In this document: one piece after another, positions 4,388 through 20,000 of the stretch
Position numbering within the stretch: position 1 is the first letter of the stretch
Layout of the letters: every line of letters starts with the position of its first letter
From: an uncultured virus (IMG/VR IMGVR_UViG_3300009419_000015)
Lineage: Duplodnaviria > Heunggongvirae > Uroviricota > Caudoviricetes
IMG/VR virus record: IMGVR_UViG_3300009419_000015
Direction: 5' to 3' (one strand)
DNA length: 20,000 bases
The notes under the pieces: model-generated
The model's database searches: none
What the model saw: the letters and a program-made list of their open reading frames with translations, nothing else
Told to the model about the DNA's origin: nothing
Position numbers and translations under genes: made by a program

Positions 4388-5581
4388 TTAAGCTATGACT
4401 GAAGAATTTAATTGAATTACTGCCTGAGCTATAACTATTTTATCAGCTTTGTTTGAATCTTCTGATGCCATGTAAACTAATTCAGGAGTTGTTTTATCAA
4501 CCGGTGCTAAATATTCACCCTCAACGTTAAGTGTAACTCTTCTCCAAGTCTTTCTGTCTTCAGTACTTGCTTTTGGTTGGATATCCAATTTATCAGAAAC
4601 CTTAACATCAGCATCCTTGAAAGAAGGAGTGGATTTAATATAATCAGCAACTGCTTGAGCTCTTTCTCTACAAAGTGCTTCGTTTCTAGCTTTATCACCT
4701 TCTTGTGATGCTCCACCAGTAACAGTAATACTATTGGCAGAAGCAACGTTACCTAGTGCTGCTAATATTGCTGCTTTACCTTCCTCTTTAAGAACTGATT
4801 TATTAACATCAAAAAGAGTGTTATCGTCCTGGATAACGATAGGCTTTAATGTTTCTGCAGTTGTTGTTTTAGGTCTCACGAACTGTATAACCTCCCTAGA
4901 TTCATATTCCACTCCTCCCTGAGGAATGATTTTAACTGGATAGTAGAAATAATACTGTACACTTATGGAGTCTGAACCTTTTCTATCGGCAGGTTGAGGT
5001 GCACTCAAAAATCCTGAGGGTGTTTTTAAAACCTGATTCTTAACCGGATTATCATATCTCCACACTTTAGCATCAAGTTTAGCCTGGTTGTCCACGATAA
5101 TATATTGATTAGCTGGTCCTGATCCCACAATAAAATCGCCGGCACTTTTTTCACCCGATGTAAACTTTTTCTTACTGTCATCGTAATACAGATACTTGGC
5201 TGCAGAAAGATTTGCTAGGTTTAATTTGGCTAAATATTGGGCAAATCCTATTCTTTTACCCGCTCCATCAAGAACTGAACCACCTAAAAGATTAGCATAT
5301 TCCATCTCTTGCAGATCAAAATCAATTCCAGTAATTTCCGTTACGTCTGTCCTTGTCATCTTGGATAGACAAGCATTCATACGTGCTAGATCTATTTGTT
5401 TATCACCTTTACCCTGATTAATTACTTCCTCAATAGCGCCTAATGCCTTTCTTCCTTTAGCATCCAGACCCTCAGCAGCTAATGCTGTTTTAAGCTCAGT
5501 AAAGTCAGATACTTTTAATCCTTCATTAATAGCAAATTTTAAGAACTCGCTAAAGCTCTCGAATACTGGTTTATTTTCCAT
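4388..5581 (-). CDS. OmpA C-terminal-like (peptidoglycan-binding) domain protein, no signal peptide
   Basis: LFDVNKSVLKEEG..ITVTGGASQEG..RNEALCRERAQAVADYI..WRRVTL at about aa 255-355. The N-terminal ~250 aa are unrecognised. Confidence 0.82.
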   Translation of the reverse strand: MENKPVFESFSEFLKFAINEGLKVSDFTELKTALAAEGLDAKGRKALGAIEEVINQGKGDKQIDLARMNACLSKMTRTDVTEITGIDFDLQEMEYANLLGGSVLDGAGKRIGFAQYLAKLNLANLSAAKYLYYDDSKKKFTSGEKSAGDFIVGSGPANQYIIVDNQAKLDAKVWRYDNPVKNQVLKTPSGFLSAPQPADRKGSDSISVQYYFYYPVKIIPQGGVEYESREVIQFVRPKTTTAETLKPIVIQDDNTLFDVNKSVLKEEGKAAILAALGNVASANSITVTGGASQEGDKARNEALCRERAQAVADYIKSTPSFKDADVKVSDKLDIQPKASTEDRKTWRRVTLNVEGEYLAPVDKTTPELVYMASEDSNKADKIVIAQAVIQLNSSVIA

Positions 5582-5647: not shown

Positions 5648-7063
5648 TTATCCCGGATAACCTTCATTTTTATGTATTCTCTCAAATAAGCTTTTCTGTT
5701 TGGATTCATTAAGATATTTGGAAAGTTCCTTAACTCTTTCAAAGTCTCTGTTATCCAATGCTTGATCTATAAGCTTTTCAAGATCTCTTTTAGCAAGTTG
5801 GGAGTAGTCAGTTTCTTCATCCTCTGCAGGTTCTGCATTTCCTGATGGTTCCGATTTATATTCATCCTCATCGTCATCATTTCTATCTATTCCAGCTGCT
5901 CCTAATTCATAGTCACTAATTTCTTTAGCAACTTCATCAATTATTTCTTGCATGTCTTTTTTAGCTGATGCTTCATCTGATAGTATTCTAAGAATCAGAT
6001 CAAGAAATCCAGATGCTTCCATAAGCATCATCTTACCAAAAACATGTTCTCTTAGATTTGTTATCTTATCAGCCTCAGGGAATTCATTAATAAAGTCTCT
6101 AAGATCAGCTGCAATTTCTGGCCCGTATCTAAGATCTTCGATCTCATCAGCCAGAGAATCAGTATTTGTTATTACTATTTCTGATGATTCCTCATCTTCA
6201 GGTATTGCATTTGCTGCTATTAATTCATAGATACCTTTAACAGTTTCATGAAGAAGCATAGCGAAATCAGTTCCAAATGCATAAATGGTTGGTTTTGTTT
6301 GGTCAAATAGTTCTTCAGTCTCCTCAGCTGGGATTTCATCGTCGTTCATTAGCTGATCTAAGATATCCTGAGCAAGATCTTCGTTACTTTTGAAATCTTC
6401 TGGTGTTTCCCATTGTACCTTAACTGATCCAGAAAATCCTGATTTATCCCTTTCCCACATTTCCTTTTGAACCTCCATAGGAATTGCCCAGTCAAAGAAT
6501 CCAGCTATTTCTGTTATTTTGTTAAGTAGATCTTTATATTCTTTACCAATCTCAGCTCCAAGGATTTGAGTTAATCCTTGAGAAACCTCAGGTAGATTTA
6601 ACATTAGCTTCGTATTTTTAGCTTCTCCCTGAGTTATATTATTAGCAATCTTTCTTTTGTGTATTTCAGAGATTATACCGGCATCCTTTAATTCCTTCAA
6701 TTGAGGCATTTCAGGTGGTTCTGGTTGAACATTTTCCATCGACTTTTTAATCTCGTCGCTCTTTGGAAATTTAATTCTTAATTCAACTTCCTCTAATATG
6801 TCACCGTACATTGTTCGAATAGCTCTTTCAGCAAGCGCTTCCAATTCTGCTTCGTGTCCTCTCTGAATCTGTTTAGCTCTAGACACCAACCCCATAAACT
6901 GTGGTATCTCTCTACCATGTCTCCTTTGCAACTCTGCATTTCTCTCTGATGCTCTTGCTTCAACATCGGAAAGGTATGATCCGGGCTTCCCGCCTTCTCC
7001 AGGTATACCTGGATTTCCTTGTAGCGAGGCTTCTTGTAATTTTTCTCTAAATGATTTAATCAT
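5648..7063 (-). CDS. Acidic phage hypothetical protein (471 aa) with C-terminal IDEAL/UVR-like helical hairpin
   Basis: Long clean ORF with central DFAMLLHETVKGIYE and DEIEDLRYGPEIA blocks, an acidic linker, then LEKLIDQALDNRDFERVKELS. Confidence 0.75.
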   Translation of the reverse strand: MIKSFREKLQEASLQGNPGIPGEGGKPGSYLSDVEARASERNAELQRRHGREIPQFMGLVSRAKQIQRGHEAELEALAERAIRTMYGDILEEVELRIKFPKSDEIKKSMENVQPEPPEMPQLKELKDAGIISEIHKRKIANNITQGEAKNTKLMLNLPEVSQGLTQILGAEIGKEYKDLLNKITEIAGFFDWAIPMEVQKEMWERDKSGFSGSVKVQWETPEDFKSNEDLAQDILDQLMNDDEIPAEETEELFDQTKPTIYAFGTDFAMLLHETVKGIYELIAANAIPEDEESSEIVITNTDSLADEIEDLRYGPEIAADLRDFINEFPEADKITNLREHVFGKMMLMEASGFLDLILRILSDEASAKKDMQEIIDEVAKEISDYELGAAGIDRNDDDEDEYKSEPSGNAEPAEDEETDYSQLAKRDLEKLIDQALDNRDFERVKELSKYLNESKQKSLFERIHKNEGYPG

Positions 7064-12869: not shown

Positions 12870-13193
12870 ATGGAAAAACACACGGTTCAATTTTTTGATT
12901 GGCTTGATATACAGAAAGAAATCTGTAAAGAGATGGGTATTGAGGAACAGTACTTTAGAGATTATCATAAATTAGTTGGTGGAGAATATAAAGATTGTTG
13001 GCATATCTGGCTGGAGTACTTCCAATCCGATGTAACCAATGATACCATCGTAAGAAACGATTGTGATGAAAGAATGGATGTTAAGCTGGAATGGATAGCA
13101 GAGGAAGGCGATGAGTGGGCAGCACCATTTGTTGAGGCAGTATATAGAGTTTGGGATAAATTTGAAATTGAATACATTAGATATAGATGGTAA
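12870..13193 (+). CDS. Hypothetical protein, acidic and Trp-rich (107 aa)
   Basis: Tightly packed ORF in an operon. Confidence 0.72.
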   Translation: MEKHTVQFFDWLDIQKEICKEMGIEEQYFRDYHKLVGGEYKDCWHIWLEYFQSDVTNDTIVRNDCDERMDVKLEWIAEEGDEWAAPFVEAVYRVWDKFEIEYIRYRW

Positions 13194-13699
13194 AAATGAA
13201 GAGCAATAGAACATACAGAATGTATGGATTGGTTCCATACAATTTAAGTCCAATCCAACAAGGAATCCAATTCGGACATGCTGTTGTTGAATATGGATTG
13301 GAATTTGGCAATACTCCAGAATACCAGAAATGGGCAAATGATGACAAAACTTTTATCATTTTAAACGGAGGCACAACAAACACCCGATACGATGAGAACG
13401 ATAATCATATTGGTTCATTAAATAATCACAGACAATTATTGTCGGATGAAGGTGTTCAATTTCGTAGTTTCTTTGAACCGGACTTAGGTGACCAATTAAC
13501 TGCGGTAGTTTTCTTGGTTGATGACAGAGTCTTTGACAAAAAGATTTGGCCAGATTATGATGGACCATATTATGCAGACATGAAAACTCCTGAACATACT
13601 GCTCATTATGAATGGAAAATGAAGTTTGCAGAAACCGAAAGGGAGGCCAGCAATATTTTATTTTTACGAGACTTTTTAAAGAACTTTAGATTAGCATAA
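13187..13699 (+). CDS. Peptidyl-tRNA hydrolase 2 (PTH2)-like protein; start may be ATG 13196
   Basis: MYGLV...LS..QQGIQFGHAV, W...KTFIILNG and FFEPDLGDQLTAVVF match the Q-x-x-H-A / F-x-E-P-D..TA pattern of phage PTH2-superfamily proteins. Confidence 0.65.
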   Translation: MVKMKSNRTYRMYGLVPYNLSPIQQGIQFGHAVVEYGLEFGNTPEYQKWANDDKTFIILNGGTTNTRYDENDNHIGSLNNHRQLLSDEGVQFRSFFEPDLGDQLTAVVFLVDDRVFDKKIWPDYDGPYYADMKTPEHTAHYEWKMKFAETEREASNILFLRDFLKNFRLA

Positions 13700-13953
13700 T
13701 GGCATTATCAAATTCGAAAATTACCAGGGCTAATAAGTTATATGAAGCAATAAAGAATAATAAGGATCTACCAAGATCACTCAGAAATATAACTGCGGAG
13801 GAAAGAGAGGAATTGCTAATCTATGCAATAGATCAGCTTATACATGAAGCCAAAAAAAGAGATGAAAAAATAGAGGAATATCAGGACTTTTTTGTAATGA
13901 TGGGTAAGTTCATGCCATACAAGAATCCAAAAAGATATAAAGGTTTTAAATAG
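13699..13953 (+). CDS. Hypothetical protein (84 aa)
   Basis: TAATG stop/start overlap with the previous gene. Confidence 0.72.
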   Translation: MALSNSKITRANKLYEAIKNNKDLPRSLRNITAEEREELLIYAIDQLIHEAKKRDEKIEEYQDFFVMMGKFMPYKNPKRYKGFK

Positions 13954-13964
13954 AAATAAAAAAT

Positions 13965-14138
13965 ATGAAGAGAATTTTAGATTTACTTGCACCCGCTTAT
14001 TTAGGGTTTGCTCTTTCGCACTTCGCAAATATTAGCTACGATCAATGGGAATTCTATTATATTATAATTCCTTTCTTTATATTAGTAAAATTAAGTAAAT
14101 TTAATAGAAATGTCGAAAACAAAAACGATAGAGGTTAG
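13965..14138 (+). CDS. Small putative membrane protein (57 aa, not in ORF track)
   Basis: Hand translation gives MKRILDLLAPAYLGFALSHFANISYDQWEFYYIIIPFFILVKLSKFNRNVENKNDRG*. It has two hydrophobic segments and an A-rich start context. Confidence 0.65.
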   Translation: MKRILDLLAPAYLGFALSHFANISYDQWEFYYIIIPFFILVKLSKFNRNVENKNDRG

Positions 14139-14640
14139 CGAGGAAATGTACGCAAAGTTAATTGAACTTGCAACCGAGATGACTACTCAGGATCCAAGGT
14201 GTACCAGAATGCCACACTTGTTTCAAATTAGAGATTGGAAAAGGAATTATGACTGGGATCTAAATGGTAACACCACATGTTGGGTTGATAGCAATGGTGA
14301 TTATACAGTAGTTGAAACACTTGATGATTTAAAAGATTATCTGGACTATAATGGTGTGGACGAACCAGACAATCTTGATGAGCTCTGGGATGATGCATAT
14401 GATCTTAGGGATTGGATTGAAGATAACTGTGGGAATCTGAAGGAGTGCTCATATTCAATGGAACCCGTTTATACTAACTCCTTTCTAACTGCTAAAGCTG
14501 CTCAGGAACATTTGGATAGAAATGACTATCATTATCATAAGGATGCAGACGTTTATCTACATCACGCATGGAGAAATCCTGAAGCAGATTTAATCTCGGA
14601 ATTTCTATGCGGATTAGTTGATAAAAAAATGCACACATAA
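14110..14640 (+). CDS. Conserved phage hypothetical protein (176 aa)
   Basis: TQDPRCTRMPHLFQI...FLTAKAAQEHL.RN.YHY...HAWRNPE pattern resembles accessory proteins of many phages. Confidence 0.75.
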   Translation: MSKTKTIEVSEEMYAKLIELATEMTTQDPRCTRMPHLFQIRDWKRNYDWDLNGNTTCWVDSNGDYTVVETLDDLKDYLDYNGVDEPDNLDELWDDAYDLRDWIEDNCGNLKECSYSMEPVYTNSFLTAKAAQEHLDRNDYHYHKDADVYLHHAWRNPEADLISEFLCGLVDKKMHT

Positions 14641-14651
14641 TCAGAGATTAT

Positions 14652-14673
14652 TCGAATTAATTTAATACATTTG
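14652..14673 (+). promoter_or_regulatory. Putative early/host-type promoter
   Basis: TCG-N11-TACATTTG upstream of the operon leading to the helicase. Confidence 0.6.
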
Positions 14674-14693
14674 CAAAAATAAAAATAAACAAC

Positions 14694-14843
14694 ATGGAAG
14701 CAATCATCAGAAAAATAGAAATCAGAATTGAAACGAACGAGGAATGCATTGACAACTTCAATGCTCCAGATCACGTAAACGATCTTCTGAGAGGCGAGAA
14801 TGAATTTCTAAAGGGATTAATAGAGGAACTGAAAAAACAATAA
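14694..14843 (+). CDS. Small helical hypothetical protein (49 aa, not in ORF track)
   Basis: Hand translation gives MEAIIRKIEIRIETNEECIDNFNAPDHVNDLLRGENEFLKGLIEELKKQ*. It follows the promoter and ends 4 nt before the next start. Confidence 0.7.
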   Translation: MEAIIRKIEIRIETNEECIDNFNAPDHVNDLLRGENEFLKGLIEELKKQ

Positions 14844-14847
14844 TATA

Positions 14848-15486
14848 GTGGTAAACAACTTCGACATCATAAGGGATCTTTTAAAATTCCGAGATAAGGA
14901 CTCCTTCTATTTTCTTCAGGTGCTGAAGAGAAGAAAGGATAATCCAGATCTTGGTAAGGACATGGTGCACATTGCTGATTATTATATCTATGACTTAGAT
15001 CAATTTGATAAGTTAAAGCCAAGAATTATCGATCAGTGTGATTCGGAGAACGCTAGAGCATACTTCAGATTGAATTCTAGAGATGCTAAGAAGGTCGCTA
15101 TGCAGACTTTGAAGAGAGTGGTAGACCATATTACATCCGAAAATCATCGTGCAGTAAAGAGCGCGTATGCATCCTGTACGGGGGAATTCCATTCTGACCC
15201 AGATAAAAGCTGGATAGTTGATATAGATTGGAAAGATTGGGATGGTGAACCACTTAGCAGGGAAACTCTATTATCAGGTGGATCATTGGGAGAAAAACTG
15301 GATTCTATGATGTCCCTTCTAACTGATCTTCAGAATGAAACCAAAAAGGAACCTAGACTGGATATAATACCAACCAAGAATGGGGTTCATATTATAACCA
15401 GACCTTTTAATTTGCAGAAATTCAAAGGATTTCATCCGGGGATGGATGTTCACAAGGACAATCCAACACTATTATATTTTAAGTAA
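14848..15486 (+). CDS. Phage protein with AEP (prim-pol)-like motifs
   Basis: GTG start. WIVDID (hhhDhD) and PTKNGVHIIT (sxxGxHh) resemble AEP motifs I and II; DVHKD is a possible motif III. Confidence 0.55.
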   Translation: MVNNFDIIRDLLKFRDKDSFYFLQVLKRRKDNPDLGKDMVHIADYYIYDLDQFDKLKPRIIDQCDSENARAYFRLNSRDAKKVAMQTLKRVVDHITSENHRAVKSAYASCTGEFHSDPDKSWIVDIDWKDWDGEPLSRETLLSGGSLGEKLDSMMSLLTDLQNETKKEPRLDIIPTKNGVHIITRPFNLQKFKGFHPGMDVHKDNPTLLYFK

Positions 15487-15504
15487 CTAATACAAGATAT
15501 AAAA

Positions 15505-15768
15505 ATGATAAAAGTAATCGTTGATGATAAGCCAAGGATCATAAGAAAAAATATGATCAGTTATCATACGGAGAATGATCTCAATTGTAGATACCAAAAT
15601 CATAATATAAATATAGCTAGACAGGAATCCGGAGATTTCTACGTAGCGGTAACAGATGATTCCGGATCTTATGCTGTTCAGGGCGGATTTGGTGGGCAGT
15701 ACTGCAGGTACGGTATTAAAACTATGGAGGATTGTTTGGTAATGTGCATACAAAACATTCTTATTTAA
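15505..15768 (+). CDS. Hypothetical protein (87 aa)
   Basis: Co-oriented ORF with good start context. Confidence 0.7.
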   Translation: MIKVIVDDKPRIIRKNMISYHTENDLNCRYQNHNINIARQESGDFYVAVTDDSGSYAVQGGFGGQYCRYGIKTMEDCLVMCIQNILI

Positions 15769-15778
15769 TTATTAAGAA

Positions 15779-17224
15779 ATGGCTAGGACAAAGAAAAAAC
15801 CGGTAGTCGATATAGACATATTAAATGGTGACCAGCGAGCCGCTTTCGAACAATTGCGTGATTATCTATATGACAGAGAGGATGATAGCGTATATGTGCT
15901 TAAAGGATGGGCTGGTACAGGTAAAACGTTTTGTATTAGCATACTTATAAAATACGCTCTTGAAGTTATACACCCAACACATAATTGGTATAAGATTGGT
16001 GTTACCGGTCCCACTAATAAATCGGTTAGGGTTATTAAAAAAACGAGCGGTCTTAGAAATTCTAGAGTTACATTTCAGACTATACATAAATTATTGGGAT
16101 TAACCGAAAGGATAACAAAGGATGGTCAGCAGGAGTTTGTTAATCAGGGTGACTTTAAACCTCAGATCAATTCGGTTAAGCTTCTTATCATTGACGAGGT
16201 TTCAATGCTTAATGATGATCTATTCCACGAGATATTAAAATACCGGGAGAAGATAAAGATCATATGTATGGGCGATCCTGCACAGATCCCGCCGGTAGGT
16301 AAACCAGACTGTATACCATTTAGAGATGAATTGGCAGATGCTTATCGAATTAAAACTCTACAGCTCAAACAGATAATGAGACAAAAGGAGGATAATCCGA
16401 TTATAGACACATCTGTTCTTATCCGAGAGGATATTTACAACGATAAGATCAATACTGGAAATGAGACCAAGGTAAATGAGATAGGTGAAGGTATAGAATA
16501 TCTAAATCTAAATCTGCCTGAGACAAGGAAGGGATTTTCAGAAAAGCTAAAAGAGTACTTTGTGACCGATGAATTCGTTAAGGATTCAGAGTATGCTAAA
16601 ATAATAGCATGGAGAAATAAAACGGTATCCACTATGAATGCTATTATTAGAAAAGCAATATATGGTGAGATCTCAGAAACTTCCAAAATACTAAATGGTG
16701 AAAAGCTAATCGCAAACAATCCAGTTATACAGGATGATGCTGTTATACTTAATACAAATGAGGAGTTTACTGTTGAGAGCTTCAGTCTCAATAGTGAGGA
16801 ACTTAGTCTGATCATTAGCGAAAATCCTGATGATGACACCATGAAGGTTAATCTGAAATATTATGACACAATAGTTAGCCTGGTCGATGACGATGGAGAT
16901 TTAATAAAATATAATATTGAAATTCTTCATGAGGATAGTGAGCATGAGTTTCAGAAGGTTGCTAATATACTTAAATTAAAAGCTATACAGACCAAGGGAA
17001 GAAATAAGTCATGGATCAGATATTATGGATTTATTCGAAGATACGCGGACGTAAATTTTGCATATGCTATTAGCTGTCACAAATCGCAAGGGAGCACATA
17101 CAATACAACATTTGTTCTGGATGATGATATTGATATGAACTGGAATATAGTTGAGAGAAACAGAATTAAATACACCGCATATACTAGGGCGAGCAGAAAA
17201 TTATACGTTCTTAAAAGATTCTAA
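15779..17224 (+). CDS. dda: Dda/RecD-like superfamily 1B DNA helicase
   Basis: Walker A GWAGTGKT, PTNKSV, TIHKLL, IIDEVSM, GDPAQIPPV, IMRQ, YAISCHKSQGSTY and YTAYTRA. Confidence 0.92.
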   Translation: MARTKKKPVVDIDILNGDQRAAFEQLRDYLYDREDDSVYVLKGWAGTGKTFCISILIKYALEVIHPTHNWYKIGVTGPTNKSVRVIKKTSGLRNSRVTFQTIHKLLGLTERITKDGQQEFVNQGDFKPQINSVKLLIIDEVSMLNDDLFHEILKYREKIKIICMGDPAQIPPVGKPDCIPFRDELADAYRIKTLQLKQIMRQKEDNPIIDTSVLIREDIYNDKINTGNETKVNEIGEGIEYLNLNLPETRKGFSEKLKEYFVTDEFVKDSEYAKIIAWRNKTVSTMNAIIRKAIYGEISETSKILNGEKLIANNPVIQDDAVILNTNEEFTVESFSLNSEELSLIISENPDDDTMKVNLKYYDTIVSLVDDDGDLIKYNIEILHEDSEHEFQKVANILKLKAIQTKGRNKSWIRYYGFIRRYADVNFAYAISCHKSQGSTYNTTFVLDDDIDMNWNIVERNRIKYTAYTRASRKLYVLKRF

Positions 17225-17287
17225 AAATCAATTACTGTTGAAATAAAATCCATGATTAATCATATAATAAAAATAAATAAAATAATG

Positions 17288-17953
17288 ATGAGTAAAGAAA
17301 TACGACAAGATATTGATGAAGTTAAGAGCTTTAATCAATTCGTAAATGAAAATAGCGAATTTACGGGAAAGGAAATTGAGTCTATATTTGATAGCACAAA
17401 AAAATATATCTCAGAAAATAATAAAACAGATAATCATTATCACAATAATAAACACATGGTTGACGTTTTCAATAACTCCATGACATTGTTTAATGAGTAT
17501 AAGAAGGAATATGAATTAAAATCCAGGGATAAACTTTGTTTAGGTTTAGCTGCACTATTTCACGATTTTGGCCACTCAGGGGGTAAATTAAAAGATGATG
17601 AAAATATCGAAATTGCATTAAAAGAGTTAAAAATTTACCTGGATACAATAAACAAATCAGATTTATATGGTAATATAGAGAAGATCATAAATGCAACTGA
17701 ATTCCCTCATAAAGATATCAATTTAGATATTTTACAAAAAATTATTAGAGATGCCGACACAATGGGTGGGATCACTGGAGACTGGATATCGGTTGTAAAA
17801 TCATTAGCTAAAGAATATAATAAATCATTCGATGAATTTATCCCGACCCAGATAAAATTTATAGAAACTGCTAAATATAATACAGATTACTGTAACGAAT
17901 TATTAAAAAACAACAAGGAAGAGATCATTTCTGAATTAAAGAAAATGATATAA
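17288..17953 (+). CDS. HD-domain phosphohydrolase with class I cyclic-nucleotide phosphodiesterase-like signature
   Basis: NHYHNNKHMVDV, AALFHDFGHSG, INATEFP and IIRDAD. The start is probably ATG 17285 or 17288 after an A-rich tract rather than 17252. Confidence 0.8.
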   Translation: MSKEIRQDIDEVKSFNQFVNENSEFTGKEIESIFDSTKKYISENNKTDNHYHNNKHMVDVFNNSMTLFNEYKKEYELKSRDKLCLGLAALFHDFGHSGGKLKDDENIEIALKELKIYLDTINKSDLYGNIEKIINATEFPHKDINLDILQKIIRDADTMGGITGDWISVVKSLAKEYNKSFDEFIPTQIKFIETAKYNTDYCNELLKNNKEEIISELKKMI

Positions 17954-17998
17954 ATCATTTAATTGATTCCAGTAAATTCCATTAATTGAATAGGGTCG

Positions 17999-18040
17999 AA
18001 ATAAAATCCTGGATTATTTTTATAGTCCGGGATTTTATTT
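17999..18040 (+). terminator. Hairpin/terminator overlapping the next promoter
   Basis: AAATAAAATCCTGGATTA..TAGTCCGGGATTTTATTT stem with G-U pairs. Confidence 0.7.
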
Positions 18041-18048
18041 TATATTTG
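18027..18048 (+). promoter_or_regulatory. Putative early/host-type promoter
   Basis: CCG-N11-TATATTTG ends 9 nt before ATG 18058. Confidence 0.65.
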
Positions 18049-18057
18049 TAGAAATTA

Positions 18058-18708
18058 ATGAAAGTAATTATGCTAGTAGACATATCCAAGGGAGAAAATG
18101 AAGTTTTAGATTCGATAAGGGGTTCAGAAAAGTACAAGGAAAGGGAATTCCAAAACACATATTACAGTGCAGTTTCCGAAATGCGAAAGATCGTTGAAGC
18201 AGCCAAGATCTACATTTTGGATAATTACCAGAAGATTCAAGATTATTCAGATCTTAGTCTGATGATGAGATGCGGCAACCATAAGGGAACAGTCTACATC
18301 GGTAAAAGAGATCAGGAAAGAAAGTTCTCATCCGAGGTATTGGCTAATATCATGAAGGAGATCGAAGAAAAAACCATACAGGTTGATAAATTCGACCTAG
18401 CGGTTTATGATTGGTCAGACGGAGATTTTTCGGTAGTTTTCAATGGTGTATCTTATAACTGGATAGATTCTGATTCAATTATATCAATAGCAGATCATAT
18501 AGAGAATGGATTGGTCAAATCAGAGGCATGCATATGCGTGGATAAATTTGATAATGTGATATCGGAAGGCGATATTCTGGATGTGCAAATGGCTGGCGAA
18601 CATAAGGTTTATTCAAAGAATGGTGAATTGTACTTTAAACCATATGGTGAAGAATCTAAAGTCAGAGACTATTTTTCCAATGACATAGTGATAGTTAAGA
18701 AAAAGTAG
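18058..18708 (+). CDS. Hypothetical protein with C-terminal YopX-like motif
   Basis: DKFDNVISEGDILDV resembles the YopX D-K-x-G-x-x-I-x-E-G-D-I motif; the N-terminal part is unknown. Confidence 0.65.
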   Translation: MKVIMLVDISKGENEVLDSIRGSEKYKEREFQNTYYSAVSEMRKIVEAAKIYILDNYQKIQDYSDLSLMMRCGNHKGTVYIGKRDQERKFSSEVLANIMKEIEEKTIQVDKFDLAVYDWSDGDFSVVFNGVSYNWIDSDSIISIADHIENGLVKSEACICVDKFDNVISEGDILDVQMAGEHKVYSKNGELYFKPYGEESKVRDYFSNDIVIVKKK

Positions 18709-18733: not shown

Positions 18734-19255
18734 ATGGAATTTCAAAAATGGTTTGACGAGAAATTAGTTATTGGTGCATTTCCGATTATTAATAACGAAT
18801 TTTACAATTCAAAAAATTATGATTACGTTATAAATGTCAGTGATGAGTACTATAAAAATATTGCATCTGACATTAGAGACGGAAATCATGAAATAAATAC
18901 CTTCTGGTTTCCTATGAATGAAGCTAAGAAAGACGTTGGATTGAATTCAATATACGGTGCAATGGTTATATTACTCGAAGCAGAAACACTTAACAAGAAG
19001 GTGTATCTACATTGTCACGCTGGAGTAAACAGAAGCAGGTGTGTACAGGCAGCATATTATTTTATGCGGACTGGCAAACAATTGGAAATAGAAACTAATG
19101 GTTACATTAATAGATTTGTGGCTATGTGCTCAAGAGGATATCTACCACCAAAAATTGAAAGTGAGAATTTCCTTATCGAGTTAGGAAAACAATTAGATTC
19201 AATAAAAATGATGGGTGGTATTTTAGATCACTGTAAATTGGAAACAATAAAATGA
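18734..19255 (+). CDS. Dual-specificity (CX5R) phosphatase-like protein
   Basis: LVIGAFP, YVINVS and P-loop VYLHCHAGVNRS. Confidence 0.88.
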   Translation: MEFQKWFDEKLVIGAFPIINNEFYNSKNYDYVINVSDEYYKNIASDIRDGNHEINTFWFPMNEAKKDVGLNSIYGAMVILLEAETLNKKVYLHCHAGVNRSRCVQAAYYFMRTGKQLEIETNGYINRFVAMCSRGYLPPKIESENFLIELGKQLDSIKMMGGILDHCKLETIK

Positions 19256-19506: not shown

Positions 19507-19524
19507 AAAGAATATTGATTGAAT

Positions 19525-20000
19525 ATGAAATACGATATAAAAATATTAAACGATTACATAAGCAGAGGTCTACTTGAGAAAAATCCTCATCCGACTCTTC
19601 CAATAGCTGTCTATAACTATTCCAGAGAAGTTCAATATGATAATAATTGGGATGATATAACATTGGCCATGCGGGGAACAATAATAGATGATGAAGGGTA
19701 TGTTGTTGCATCTGCATTTCCTAAATTCTTCAATTACGAGGAAGTCGCAGATAAGGTTCCGCTGAGAGGTGACTATGTCTATGTACAGGAAAAGGTTGAC
19801 GGATCTCTGGGATTACTTTTTTATTATGCTGATGAATGGCATTTAGCTACCAAGGGATCTTTTACGTCAGACCAAGCAAAGAGGGGGATGAAGATACTGA
19901 AAGAGAAATATAAACTCTTCGATCAGATTTTCATGACCCACGTAACCTATATTGTTGAAATAATTTATCCAGAAAACAGAATAGTCGTTGATTATAAGGG
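19525..20000 (+). CDS. rnlA: T4 Rnl1 (RnlA)-family RNA ligase; 3' partial (not in ORF track)
   Basis: Hand translation gives MKYDIKILNDY..VYNYS..MRGTIID..FPKFFNYEE..QEKVDGSLG (motif I KxDG)..ATKGSFTSDQA..VEIIYPENRIVVDY. The frame is open to the window end. Confidence 0.92.
   Translation, partial: MKYDIKILNDYISRGLLEKNPHPTLPIAVYNYSREVQYDNNWDDITLAMRGTIIDDEGYVVASAFPKFFNYEEVADKVPLRGDYVYVQEKVDGSLGLLFYYADEWHLATKGSFTSDQAKRGMKILKEKYKLFDQIFMTHVTYIVEIIYPENRIVVDYK

Follow-up and report, generated by a model that had tools for sequence, protein, structure and literature searches.

Class I cyclic-nucleotide phosphodiesterases (PDEs; Pfam PF00233), whose fold is that of the human drug-target PDEs that destroy cyclic AMP, are usually treated as eukaryotic. 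Here we analyse a gene that encodes a compact HD phosphohydrolase resembling these enzymes, in a stretch of 20,000 nucleotides from an uncultured virus of the Caudoviricetes (IMG/VR IMGVR_UViG_3300009419_000015), referred to below as the window. The predicted structure of the HD protein matches the class I PDE domain (PDE7A 4pm0, PDE4D, PDE9A, PDE10A and RhoPDE 5vyd) over residues 25-221, with Z-scores of up to 17.7, and the two have in common YHNxxH, HD, a further His, a distal Asp, the lack of an HH pair and a Gln-x-x-Phe predicted to lie on the matching helix. They differ in that the HD protein has about 200 residues against about 275-300, is only 15-21% identical, has T-E/Q-F/Y-P for T-D, lacks a regulatory domain, is phage-borne and has an activity that is putative. 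From its sequence and model, we propose that it is probably a metal-dependent 3',5'-cyclic nucleoside monophosphate (cNMP) phosphodiesterase of class I fold, compact and stand-alone.

Three other groups of described enzymes invite comparison. YpgQ from Bacillus subtilis (5dqv) and YedJ from E. coli (3gw7) share with the HD protein its size, a stand-alone all-helical HD fold and the H...HD...D ligands, but fewer of their residues can be aligned (171 and 170, respectively), and a class I profile recognises only the HD protein. Apyc1 and Acb1, phage enzymes that cleave the signals of Pycsar and CBASS, are alike only in the proposed role, that of a phage enzyme removing a cyclic nucleotide; their function has been shown, while that of the HD protein is putative, and their folds, metallo-beta-lactamase and 2H, respectively, differ from the HD fold. 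YpgQ acts on (d)NTPs, according to a passage of PMC8177086. For jumbo phages, HD-GYP, HD-alarmone, DHH, calcineurin-like, 2H and cRec enzymes have been named, and the HD enzymes among them have been proposed to serve as counter-nucleotide defence; the main-text passages of that source name no class I-like family, although its supplement may list the one studied here (PMC7824862). Our literature search, in which subscription journals are poorly covered, returned no paper that deals with the PHROG 16069 family or with phage PDEs of a class I-like kind.

The gene and its active-site motifs are the following, with residues numbered from the ATG at 17288 and counts referring to 139 aligned homologues:

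17288..17953, + strand: compact class I PDE-like HD phosphohydrolase gene (PHROG 16069), 221 residues; open reading frame (ORF) with Pfam, PHROG, AlphaFold2-model and structure matches
17438..17455, + strand: YHNxxH motif; Y51 and H52 in 139/139, H56 in 138/139
17561..17584, + strand: HD motif H92-D93 with H96 and SGG; H92 and D93 in 139/139, H96 in 137/139
17594..17605, + strand: D103-x-x-N106, putative counterpart of the PDE E-x-x-H second-shell pair; 138/139 and 133/139
17696..17707, + strand: T137-E138-F-P140, putative counterpart of the PDE T-D motif; T137 and P140 invariant
17747..17758, + strand: R-D-A-D157, predicted distal metal-binding Asp; D157 in 139/139 and aligned by hhalign to the class I Asp
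17804..17815, + strand: L173-x-x-E176, putative counterpart, by spacing, of the hydrophobic-clamp helix; L173 in 124/139, E176 in 139/139
17849..17860, + strand: Q188-x-x-F191, predicted helix of the class I invariant Gln and clamp Phe; Q in 111/139, F in 135/139

The three motifs quoted in an earlier sequence-only reading of this DNA (YHNNKHMVDV, AALFHDFGHSG and IIRDAD) can all be read in the translation of 17288..17953. A second ATG stands in tandem with the start, at 17285, and another lies upstream, at 17252. Across the homologues, Y51, H52, H92, D93, T137, P140, D157 and E176 are invariant, and H56, H96, D103, N106, D155 and F191 are kept in 133-138; all nine of the site residues tested are retained in 107. 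By analogy with PDE4, H52 would occupy the general-acid position and H56 would be a metal ligand. With the H...HD...D ligands conserved on a modelled helical bundle, the HD protein is a member of the HD superfamily. The 139 sequences show no conserved HH pair or GYP and lack the ligand set H...HD...H...HH...D of the HD-GYP and PgpH proteins. HD enzymes that cut cyclic dinucleotides carry such an extra H...HH motif, as described in a passage of PMC8177086. Because this extra pair is absent here, a cyclic mononucleotide is the better guess for the substrate.

The likeness to class I PDEs is evident in both sequence profiles and fold. Pfam HD matches the ORF with 25 bits, above its cut-off, and PDEase_I does so with 28.5 bits against a cut-off of 24.8, at residues 51-98, which cover positions 1-48 only of the 238 in that profile; PDEase_I is also matched by 74 of the 139 homologues at E<=0.001. 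PHROG 16069, annotated 'phosphohydrolase', covers residues 39-209 (E 6.4e-32), while NCBIfam and PADLOC give nothing beyond weak Cas3-HD matches. The class I signature, [YF]HNxxH and HDxxHxG, is present and aligns to PDE8A and PDE10A. When the profile of the 139 homologues was compared with PDB sequences, the best 60 of 159 matches were all class I PDEs, via the N-terminal 60-70 positions only. Conversely, a class I PDE profile gave the HD protein 28.3 bits, versus -0.3 and 2.8 for two YedJ/YpgQ-like proteins. Neither 5dqv nor 3gw7 is among the 19 PDB matches of the query at E<=10, whereas a true YedJ/YpgQ member reaches them at 1e-23 to 1e-47.

The AlphaFold2 model has ten helices and a mean pLDDT (predicted local distance difference test) of 95.6. 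With this model, Foldseek gives a class I PDE in every one of the best 40 rows (lowest E 6e-4). With VIA, an exhaustive structural aligner that we ran over 48,161 chains, class I PDEs occupy ranks 1-14, with Z-scores of 16.0-17.5, root-mean-square deviations (rmsd) of 2.6-3.0 and 193-197 residues aligned; these 197 residues span about 275-300 PDE residues, of which approximately 80-100 are missing, presumably from loops. Lower ranks include 2pq7 (Z 15.1), YedJ (13.4), small alarmone hydrolases (10.6-11.7), SAMHD1 (about 10) and the HD-GYP chain 5z7c (9.0); the HD protein thus differs from the HD-GYP and HD-alarmone enzymes of jumbo phages in these scores as well as in having neither GYP nor HH.

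The base pocket was assessed by folding residues 25-194 separately and locating the last residue, T194, on the PDE chains; if Q188 corresponds to the invariant Gln, T194 is expected at Gln+6. In this cut model class I PDEs fill ranks 1-15 (Z 13.6-15.4), followed by 2pq7 (13.1) and YpgQ (12.9), and 14 of the 15 PDE chains were numbered. Of the invariant Gln numbers used, those with a source cited here are PDE9A Q453, from a PDB title, and PDE4D Q369, from a passage of PMC6436744. T194 falls exactly on Gln+6 in four chains (PDE7A, PDE5, PDE2A 3ibj and PDE3A), one residue off in six (PDE4D twice, PDE9A twice, PDE8A and PDE4B), and four residues off, or one helical turn, in the other four (PDE1B, PDE2A 6b96, TcrPDEC1 and LmjPDEB1). 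Independently, when hhalign was run against eleven viral-contig class I PDEs, D157 fell on the distal Asp and the pair Q188/F191 on E/Y positions, which map in turn to the Gln and Phe of AQIGF in PDE9A. The comparison with PDEase_I and generic HD families that the sequence-only reading had called for thus favours a class I PDE-like protein, by profile, fold and the position of the Gln-x-x-Phe helix. As a separate observation, canonical class I PDE genes occur on viral contigs (L207-L220 and L195), some of which are giant-virus metagenome-assembled genomes, and most of these genes have Glu at the invariant-Gln position, as in RhoPDE.

A number of results weigh against this assignment. On the full model, YpgQ comes right after the PDEs (Z 16.0, rmsd 2.9, 171 residues aligned) and, being within 1 Z, is tied with most PDE rows. 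The C-terminal half is the less PDE-like: its profile finds no PDE among 9 matches to PDB sequences at E<=10, and hhalign aligns it to class I PDEs without significance (probability 1.4%). In local mode, hhalign against a single giant-virus class I PDE and against eleven of them aligns only the N-terminal 58-60 columns. Where class I enzymes show E-x-x-H, T-D and D-x-x-N, the HD protein shows D-x-x-N, T-E and D-x-x-G/Q; in the class I alignment the E..H pair at +3 never varies, and its equivalence with D103/N106 is drawn from the pattern, not from an hhalign alignment. Q188 is substituted in 28 of the 139 homologues. Residue 160 (17765-17767), three after D157, is Gln in 69 of the 139 and Gly in the clade with the leader described below, against Asn in class I, where the position contacts the base; that clade may read a different base. 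In the reverse test with the family profile there is no separation, with 32.8 and 28.8 bits for YedJ/YpgQ-like proteins versus 22-32 for class I PDEs, and other bacterial YH-type HD families rank higher, at 40-63 bits. Finally, a quick tree of 45 rows resolved none of the deep branches. Our reading of the sequence and model is that the HD protein appears most like a class I PDE, yet as a non-canonical member.

By analogy with PDE4 and PDE9, H56, H92, D93 and D157 would bind metal 1, while metal 2 would be held by D93 and by ordered waters on H96, D103, N106 and T137. A bridging hydroxide would attack the phosphorus, H52 would protonate the 3' oxygen, and the base would be stacked between L173 and F191 and read by Q188. 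This two-metal hydrolysis would convert a 3',5'-cNMP into the 5'-NMP, and the phage would in this way lower the cNMP pool of its host, with effects on cAMP/cGMP regulation or on cCMP/cUMP immunity. Fold, conserved residues, family range, insertion and leader motif (see below) come from the computation; catalysis, substrate, packaging and biological role are inferences. If this is true, the stripped-down family would show the class I fold in a naturally minimal form suited as a model, and might represent a new phage route to erasing cyclic nucleotides. The HD protein is small and predicted to be soluble, and the cultured phages Lu11 and PaBG encode homologues.

The family is large. We found 156 homologous proteins among 902 candidates, the best 120 of them 60-99% identical, and the family profile collects 1,678 clusters at 50% identity, 684 of them at E<=1e-10. 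Among 150 clusters listed, most have 200-240 residues; the family consists of stand-alone HD proteins of ~210 residues. Annotated phages yielded 61 matching records, and the best 60, duplicates included, all come from genomes of 227-735 kb; the homologue in the 735-kb phage LR756501 is 52% identical, and those at 24-34% belong to Lak phages, PaBG, Lu11, Noxifer and several jumbo phages of enterobacteria and Burkholderia. Five Atlas clusters that we inspected are 60-100% viral. Cellular copies are rare, with 18 loci in a genome scan, 11 of them titled as candidate phyla radiation (CPR) bacteria. In the phylum of a CPR-type seed, 1 of 201 sampled genomes is positive, namely the seed itself, and in that of a Sulfuricella locus, 3 of 401 at E<=1e-15, the seed included. 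For PF00233, none of 301 genomes from the phylum of a Bacteroidales locus gave a match, but neither did the controls, which leaves this negative without weight. Close homologues occupy many unrelated genomic contexts. By sequence, the family would be a widespread, minimal class I-like PDE set concentrated in huge phages, for which we found no prior description in the literature.

Fused forms were also sought. A search of proteins of 470-2000 residues, a weak one in that 7,999 candidates were scored, gave one match, which appears to be a gene-calling fusion to an upstream nuclease-like ORF and was rejected. Two other proteins do combine a family member with a second domain: P0256 (399 residues) with a small alarmone-hydrolase-like HD_4 domain, giving two HD domains, and P0216 (322 residues) with DUF4326. 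L189 and L191 represent another YHN-type phage HD family, with a WHD..Y..G...NE pattern, which is separate from the studied family in the tree.

The position of the gene can be described with four flanking features:

15779..17224, + strand: Dda-like superfamily 1 helicase, left flank of the insertion; phrog_325, E 8.8e-86, 95% identical in L045-L048
17240..17251, + strand: first copy of a 12-bp direct repeat, candidate left junction; the longest shared word in 500 shuffles is 11
17998..18041, + strand: terminator-like hairpin of 20 pairs, whose first 12 bases are the second copy of the direct repeat
18058..18708, + strand: 216-residue ORF, right flank of the insertion; homologous ORF directly after the helicase in L045-L048 and L050

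The HD gene is an accessory insertion, because it is missing from sister phages, in which helicase, hairpin and next ORF adjoin. The sequence-only reading had located the gene between helicase and terminator and called it insertion-like, and both observations hold. A related helicase is encoded at eight viral loci. In L045-L048, which are near-identical and represent one lineage, the helicase stop is followed by a short spacer and the homologue of the 216-residue ORF; amino-acid identity to the window is 95% for the helicase, and nucleotide identity is 87% over 12871-17225. L050 (73%) has the same order, again without the HD gene. Relatives that lack the gene have a similar hairpin behind the helicase. 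L049 has a different ORF, of 82 residues, at the insertion place, and synteny on that side is absent from L051 and L052. The family profile detects nothing in the records of the gene-less relatives (0 of 5, four of them at least 90% complete), whereas it detects all 5 of 5 control records known to carry the family. The 12-bp repeat brackets the gene at 17240 and 17998, and shuffling of the left spacer (n=500) gave a maximum of 11. In a freshwater sequencing run, deep contigs match up to 17245 and from 18066, and the HD gene is found on shallow contigs only; this pattern is a hint only, because no contig joining across the gene is listed in that run.

The HD gene was also said to be more AT-rich than its neighbours, and its GC content (0.281) is indeed the lowest of the 30 window ORFs measured. 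Since GC at second codon positions is likewise the lowest of the 30 and GC at third positions (0.27) only the 9th from low, the low value stems mostly from amino-acid content; an argument for horizontal transfer from codon composition was dropped, third positions being ordinary.

The protein's N-terminal part lies outside the PDE fold and consists of the following:

17288..17359, + strand: leader at the N terminus (residues 1-24), a single helix outside the PDE fold, modelled over residues 3-22; PDE matches begin at residue 25
17321..17350, + strand: decapeptide VKSFNQFVNE (residues 12-21), resembling a capsid-targeting sequence, with a predicted cleavage site behind E21; matches MKTYQEFIAE of T4 IPIII in register

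A packaging-type leader, as proposed before, is real as a sequence motif of the T4 type, matching IPIII at aromatic 4, Phe 7, aliphatic 8 and Glu 10; the T4 IPI decapeptide, for comparison, is MKTFKEFTST. The leader differs from the T4 targeting sequence (of IPII, IPIII and IPI, removed by gp21) in having V-x-E for L/I-x-E and a folded 200-residue enzyme as its cargo, and it is known here from sequence alone. In T4, positions 4 and 7 serve targeting, and 8 and 10 processing, according to a passage of PMC9026906. By the same route, the leader may load the enzyme into the prohead, where a gp21-like protease would cut after E21, and the enzyme would arrive with the DNA. On these grounds we regard the loading of the HD protein into the virion as an evenly balanced call. 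If the leader works as in T4, the HD protein would be a concrete enzyme cargo with which to probe the many tagged proteins of huge phages.

The motif is not confined to the HD gene. In a relaxed form, defined with the HD query in view and counted on 20-kb pieces with the loss of ORFs crossing their ends, it occurs within the first 25 residues of 16 of the 355 ORFs in the sister genome G011, where later windows give 2, 3 and 1, and shuffles a mean of 2.0 and a maximum of 7. For the 735-kb phage the count is 48 of 706, against 3, 12 and 6 in later windows and shuffles with a mean of 5.9 and a maximum of 11. Both G011 and another sister genome, G014, encode a gp23 capsid protein and a gp21-type protease, which in G011 is fused to the scaffold. 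Internal copies of a tight motif in G011 (~95,000 residues) all lie within this gp21-scaffold fusion (9 of 9), and 5 of 7 in the 735-kb phage lie within its protease-scaffold. These prohead protease-scaffolds (L186:26-1996 in G011; L135:13913-16336 in the 735-kb phage, W01) contain about ten Y-S-[EKD]-Y-[LIV]-A-E repeats with the pattern of the leader. Most of the 64 tagged ORFs have no family; those named include two transglycosylases, a CHAP domain, an adenylate kinase, PPK2 and other HD proteins, and PHROG and Pfam name no capsid or scaffold protein among the 64. On the minus strand of the window, an OmpA-domain protein (4388-5581) and a 471-residue acidic protein (5648-7063) begin with looser leaders, F-S-E-F-L and K-S-F-R-E-K-L-Q-E, outside the patterns counted.

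A nearly even case can be made for the alternative, only just short of balanced, that the leader serves some other purpose as a docking tag, or is a mere remnant, and that the enzyme acts only after intracellular expression, co-transcribed with the helicase. The 63 bases from the helicase stop (17224) to the HD gene contain no terminator-like site, the hairpin at 17998-18041 being the only one within 17000-18200. Most of the family has no leader: among close homologues it is present in 36 of 120 by the pattern ending in Glu and in 98 of 120 by either pattern, and among distant ones in 1 and 3 of 132, respectively, i.e., it is clade-restricted. The 735-kb phage's own homologue of the HD gene lacks it; a more distant HD phosphohydrolase of that phage (PHROG 19425; L141:18080-19048, W01) does carry one. 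In addition, 11 residues precede the decapeptide, whereas that of T4 starts at the first Met, and a candidate late motif, GATATATA, found before 7 of 16 tagged versus 46 of 338 other G011 genes and presumably of late-promoter type, is absent within 70 bases upstream of the HD gene. Against a mere relic, the leader is kept across the sub-clade, with several unrelated length variants converging on F-x-x-F-h-x-E; in L054, a neighbouring gene that is unrelated begins with the long variant as well; and the motif equals the scaffold repeat. Of the virion delivery suggested earlier, the leader motif thus stands, and delivery itself is weakened by the clade restriction and the missing candidate late promoter.

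The leader alone (32 residues), compared by tblastn with annotated phages, gave no match, as expected at that length. As to the host, TAnnTTTG, an element of the Bacteroidota type, lies upstream of 41 of 354 G011 genes versus 16 in shuffles, yet 35 are found on the reverse strand, and Shine-Dalgarno-like words precede 12 of 354 versus 18; we assign no host from these counts.

The sequence-only reading saw in the gene an eraser of immune signals, and a dedicated anti-defence nuclease is the next alternative. It would act either on cCMP/cUMP, the signals of Pycsar, which is a sub-case of the cNMP phosphodiesterase proposed here, or on the cyclic di- and oligonucleotides of CBASS and type III CRISPR, via a pocket opened by the missing loops; we consider it unlikely. 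The gene is gained and lost among sister phages as an accessory, and the family is strongly biased to large phages and rare in sampled cells. There are precedents as well, in that T4 IPI is an injected anti-restriction protein (passages of PMC9958956 and PMC9026906) and cNMP cleavage by Apyc1 defeats Pycsar (a passage of PMC10286901). On the other side, the Gln/Phe pocket of known class I enzymes reads purines, and the H...HH motif of the HD enzymes that cut cyclic dinucleotides is absent (both from passages of PMC8177086). CBASS and type III signals fit poorly because they are cyclic di- or oligonucleotides and the motif of their HD cutters is lacking, and this part of the earlier proposal has lost ground; anti-Pycsar action is plausible, without support from context. 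The cellular copies, in CPR and other bacteria, have no phage-like context in the genes inspected.

For the context, the neighbouring genes of 100 loci, two per side, were clustered into 175 groups; of the 174 under 1,200 residues, 150 were scanned, and those left out comprised four belonging to the window's own copy plus another 20. The 150 groups contain no conserved neighbour, and no cyclase, RNA ligase, cNMP gene or recognised defence gene. Single loci adjoin NAD- or nucleotide-related genes (NAMPT, PARG, NUDIX, ribonucleotide reductase). At L028, in Sulfuricella, a family member overlaps a cNMP-binding/GGDEF gene, and at L224:1-1889 an HD gene of a sister family is flanked by two genes, for a class III cyclase and for a protein with a cNMP-binding domain; both are single cellular cases, and only 1 of 40 genomes of the Sulfuricella family has the HD gene. 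Class III cyclases were absent from five phage records, three of which are fragments and one of which (G011) has no HD gene. The two cellular contexts speak for a cNMP phosphodiesterase, and the lack of cyclase and cNMP genes beside the phage copies speaks against it. Nothing in the context links this copy to Pycsar, CBASS or type III CRISPR, and PADLOC gives only the weak Cas3-HD matches. We rate an immune signal as the main target of the HD enzyme as rather unlikely. The more specific scenario, in which the tagged minimal PDE of one clade enters the cell together with the genome and degrades immune signals, cCMP/cUMP (or cAMP/cGMP), ahead of any phage gene expression, is more doubtful still; if true, it would represent a new anti-defence fold, pre-loaded in the virion.

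As an alternative to the class I-like phosphodiesterase, the HD protein could be a nucleotide pyrophosphohydrolase or nucleotidase of the YpgQ/YedJ type that trims pools of (d)NTPs or modified nucleotides in the service of phage replication, its class I resemblance reflecting shared ancestry. The scores on the full model (YpgQ 16.0, 2pq7 15.1, YedJ 13.4), the comparable size of those chains (188-215 residues), the 32.8 bits that the family profile gives a YedJ-like protein, and the place of the gene behind a helicase are consistent with this, as is the best non-lactamase match of the C-terminal profile, the YedJ relative Lin1889 (E 0.65). However, YpgQ aligns over 171 residues versus 193-197 for the PDEs, it falls to Z 12.9 versus 13.6-15.4 in the cut model, the class I profile does not recognise YedJ-like proteins, and the best 60 PDB matches of the family profile include no YpgQ relative. 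We judge this alternative improbable. On clustering with dNMP/dNTP hydrolases, which the sequence-only reading had named as a refuting outcome, the results are mixed: the class I profile separates the YedJ-like proteins, in favour of a PDE, while the fold of YpgQ is nearly tied and the tree does not discriminate at depth.

The healing of RNA ends (2',3'-cyclic phosphate or 3'-phosphate), alongside an RNA ligase 1.6 kb downstream, is very improbable, and the rest of the odds goes to other substrates. In some bacterial Pnk enzymes such healing is done by an HD domain, and a T4 RnlA-family ligase (from about 19522) and a phosphatase-like gene (18734-19255) are nearby, but sister phages retain the ligase without the HD gene, none of the 150 scanned neighbour groups contains a ligase, and the tRNA-processing HD chain 3wfo reaches only Z 8.9.

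The window as a whole has the gene content of a large phage, with an endolysin, the Dda-like helicase, a thioredoxin and the RNA ligase. The metagenome contig L053 is a 99.9% copy of it over 12.7 kb, and the sequencing runs that match it best are subsurface metagenomes; the runs listed as matching include no RNA dataset. A sigma-70 promoter scan of the window was uninformative (9 found versus 8.3 expected). Two genes encode proteins like dual-specificity or protein tyrosine phosphatases (18734-19255 and 167-1021), with HCxAGxxR-type motifs; with Pfam DSPc, the former is under and the latter over the cut-off. The gene at 18734 and the subsequent ORF of 84 residues are absent at that place in the sister phages L045-L048, and thus form a second accessory block just before the RNA ligase, a member of the T4 RnlA family that occupies 19522-20000 of the window (start about 19522). 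In L045:8456-11051, the ligase is followed by an ORF with a presumed calcineurin-like motif and by one with a presumed P-loop kinase motif, and we read the ligase, calcineurin-like and P-loop kinase ORFs of the sister phages as a putative split RNA repair set.

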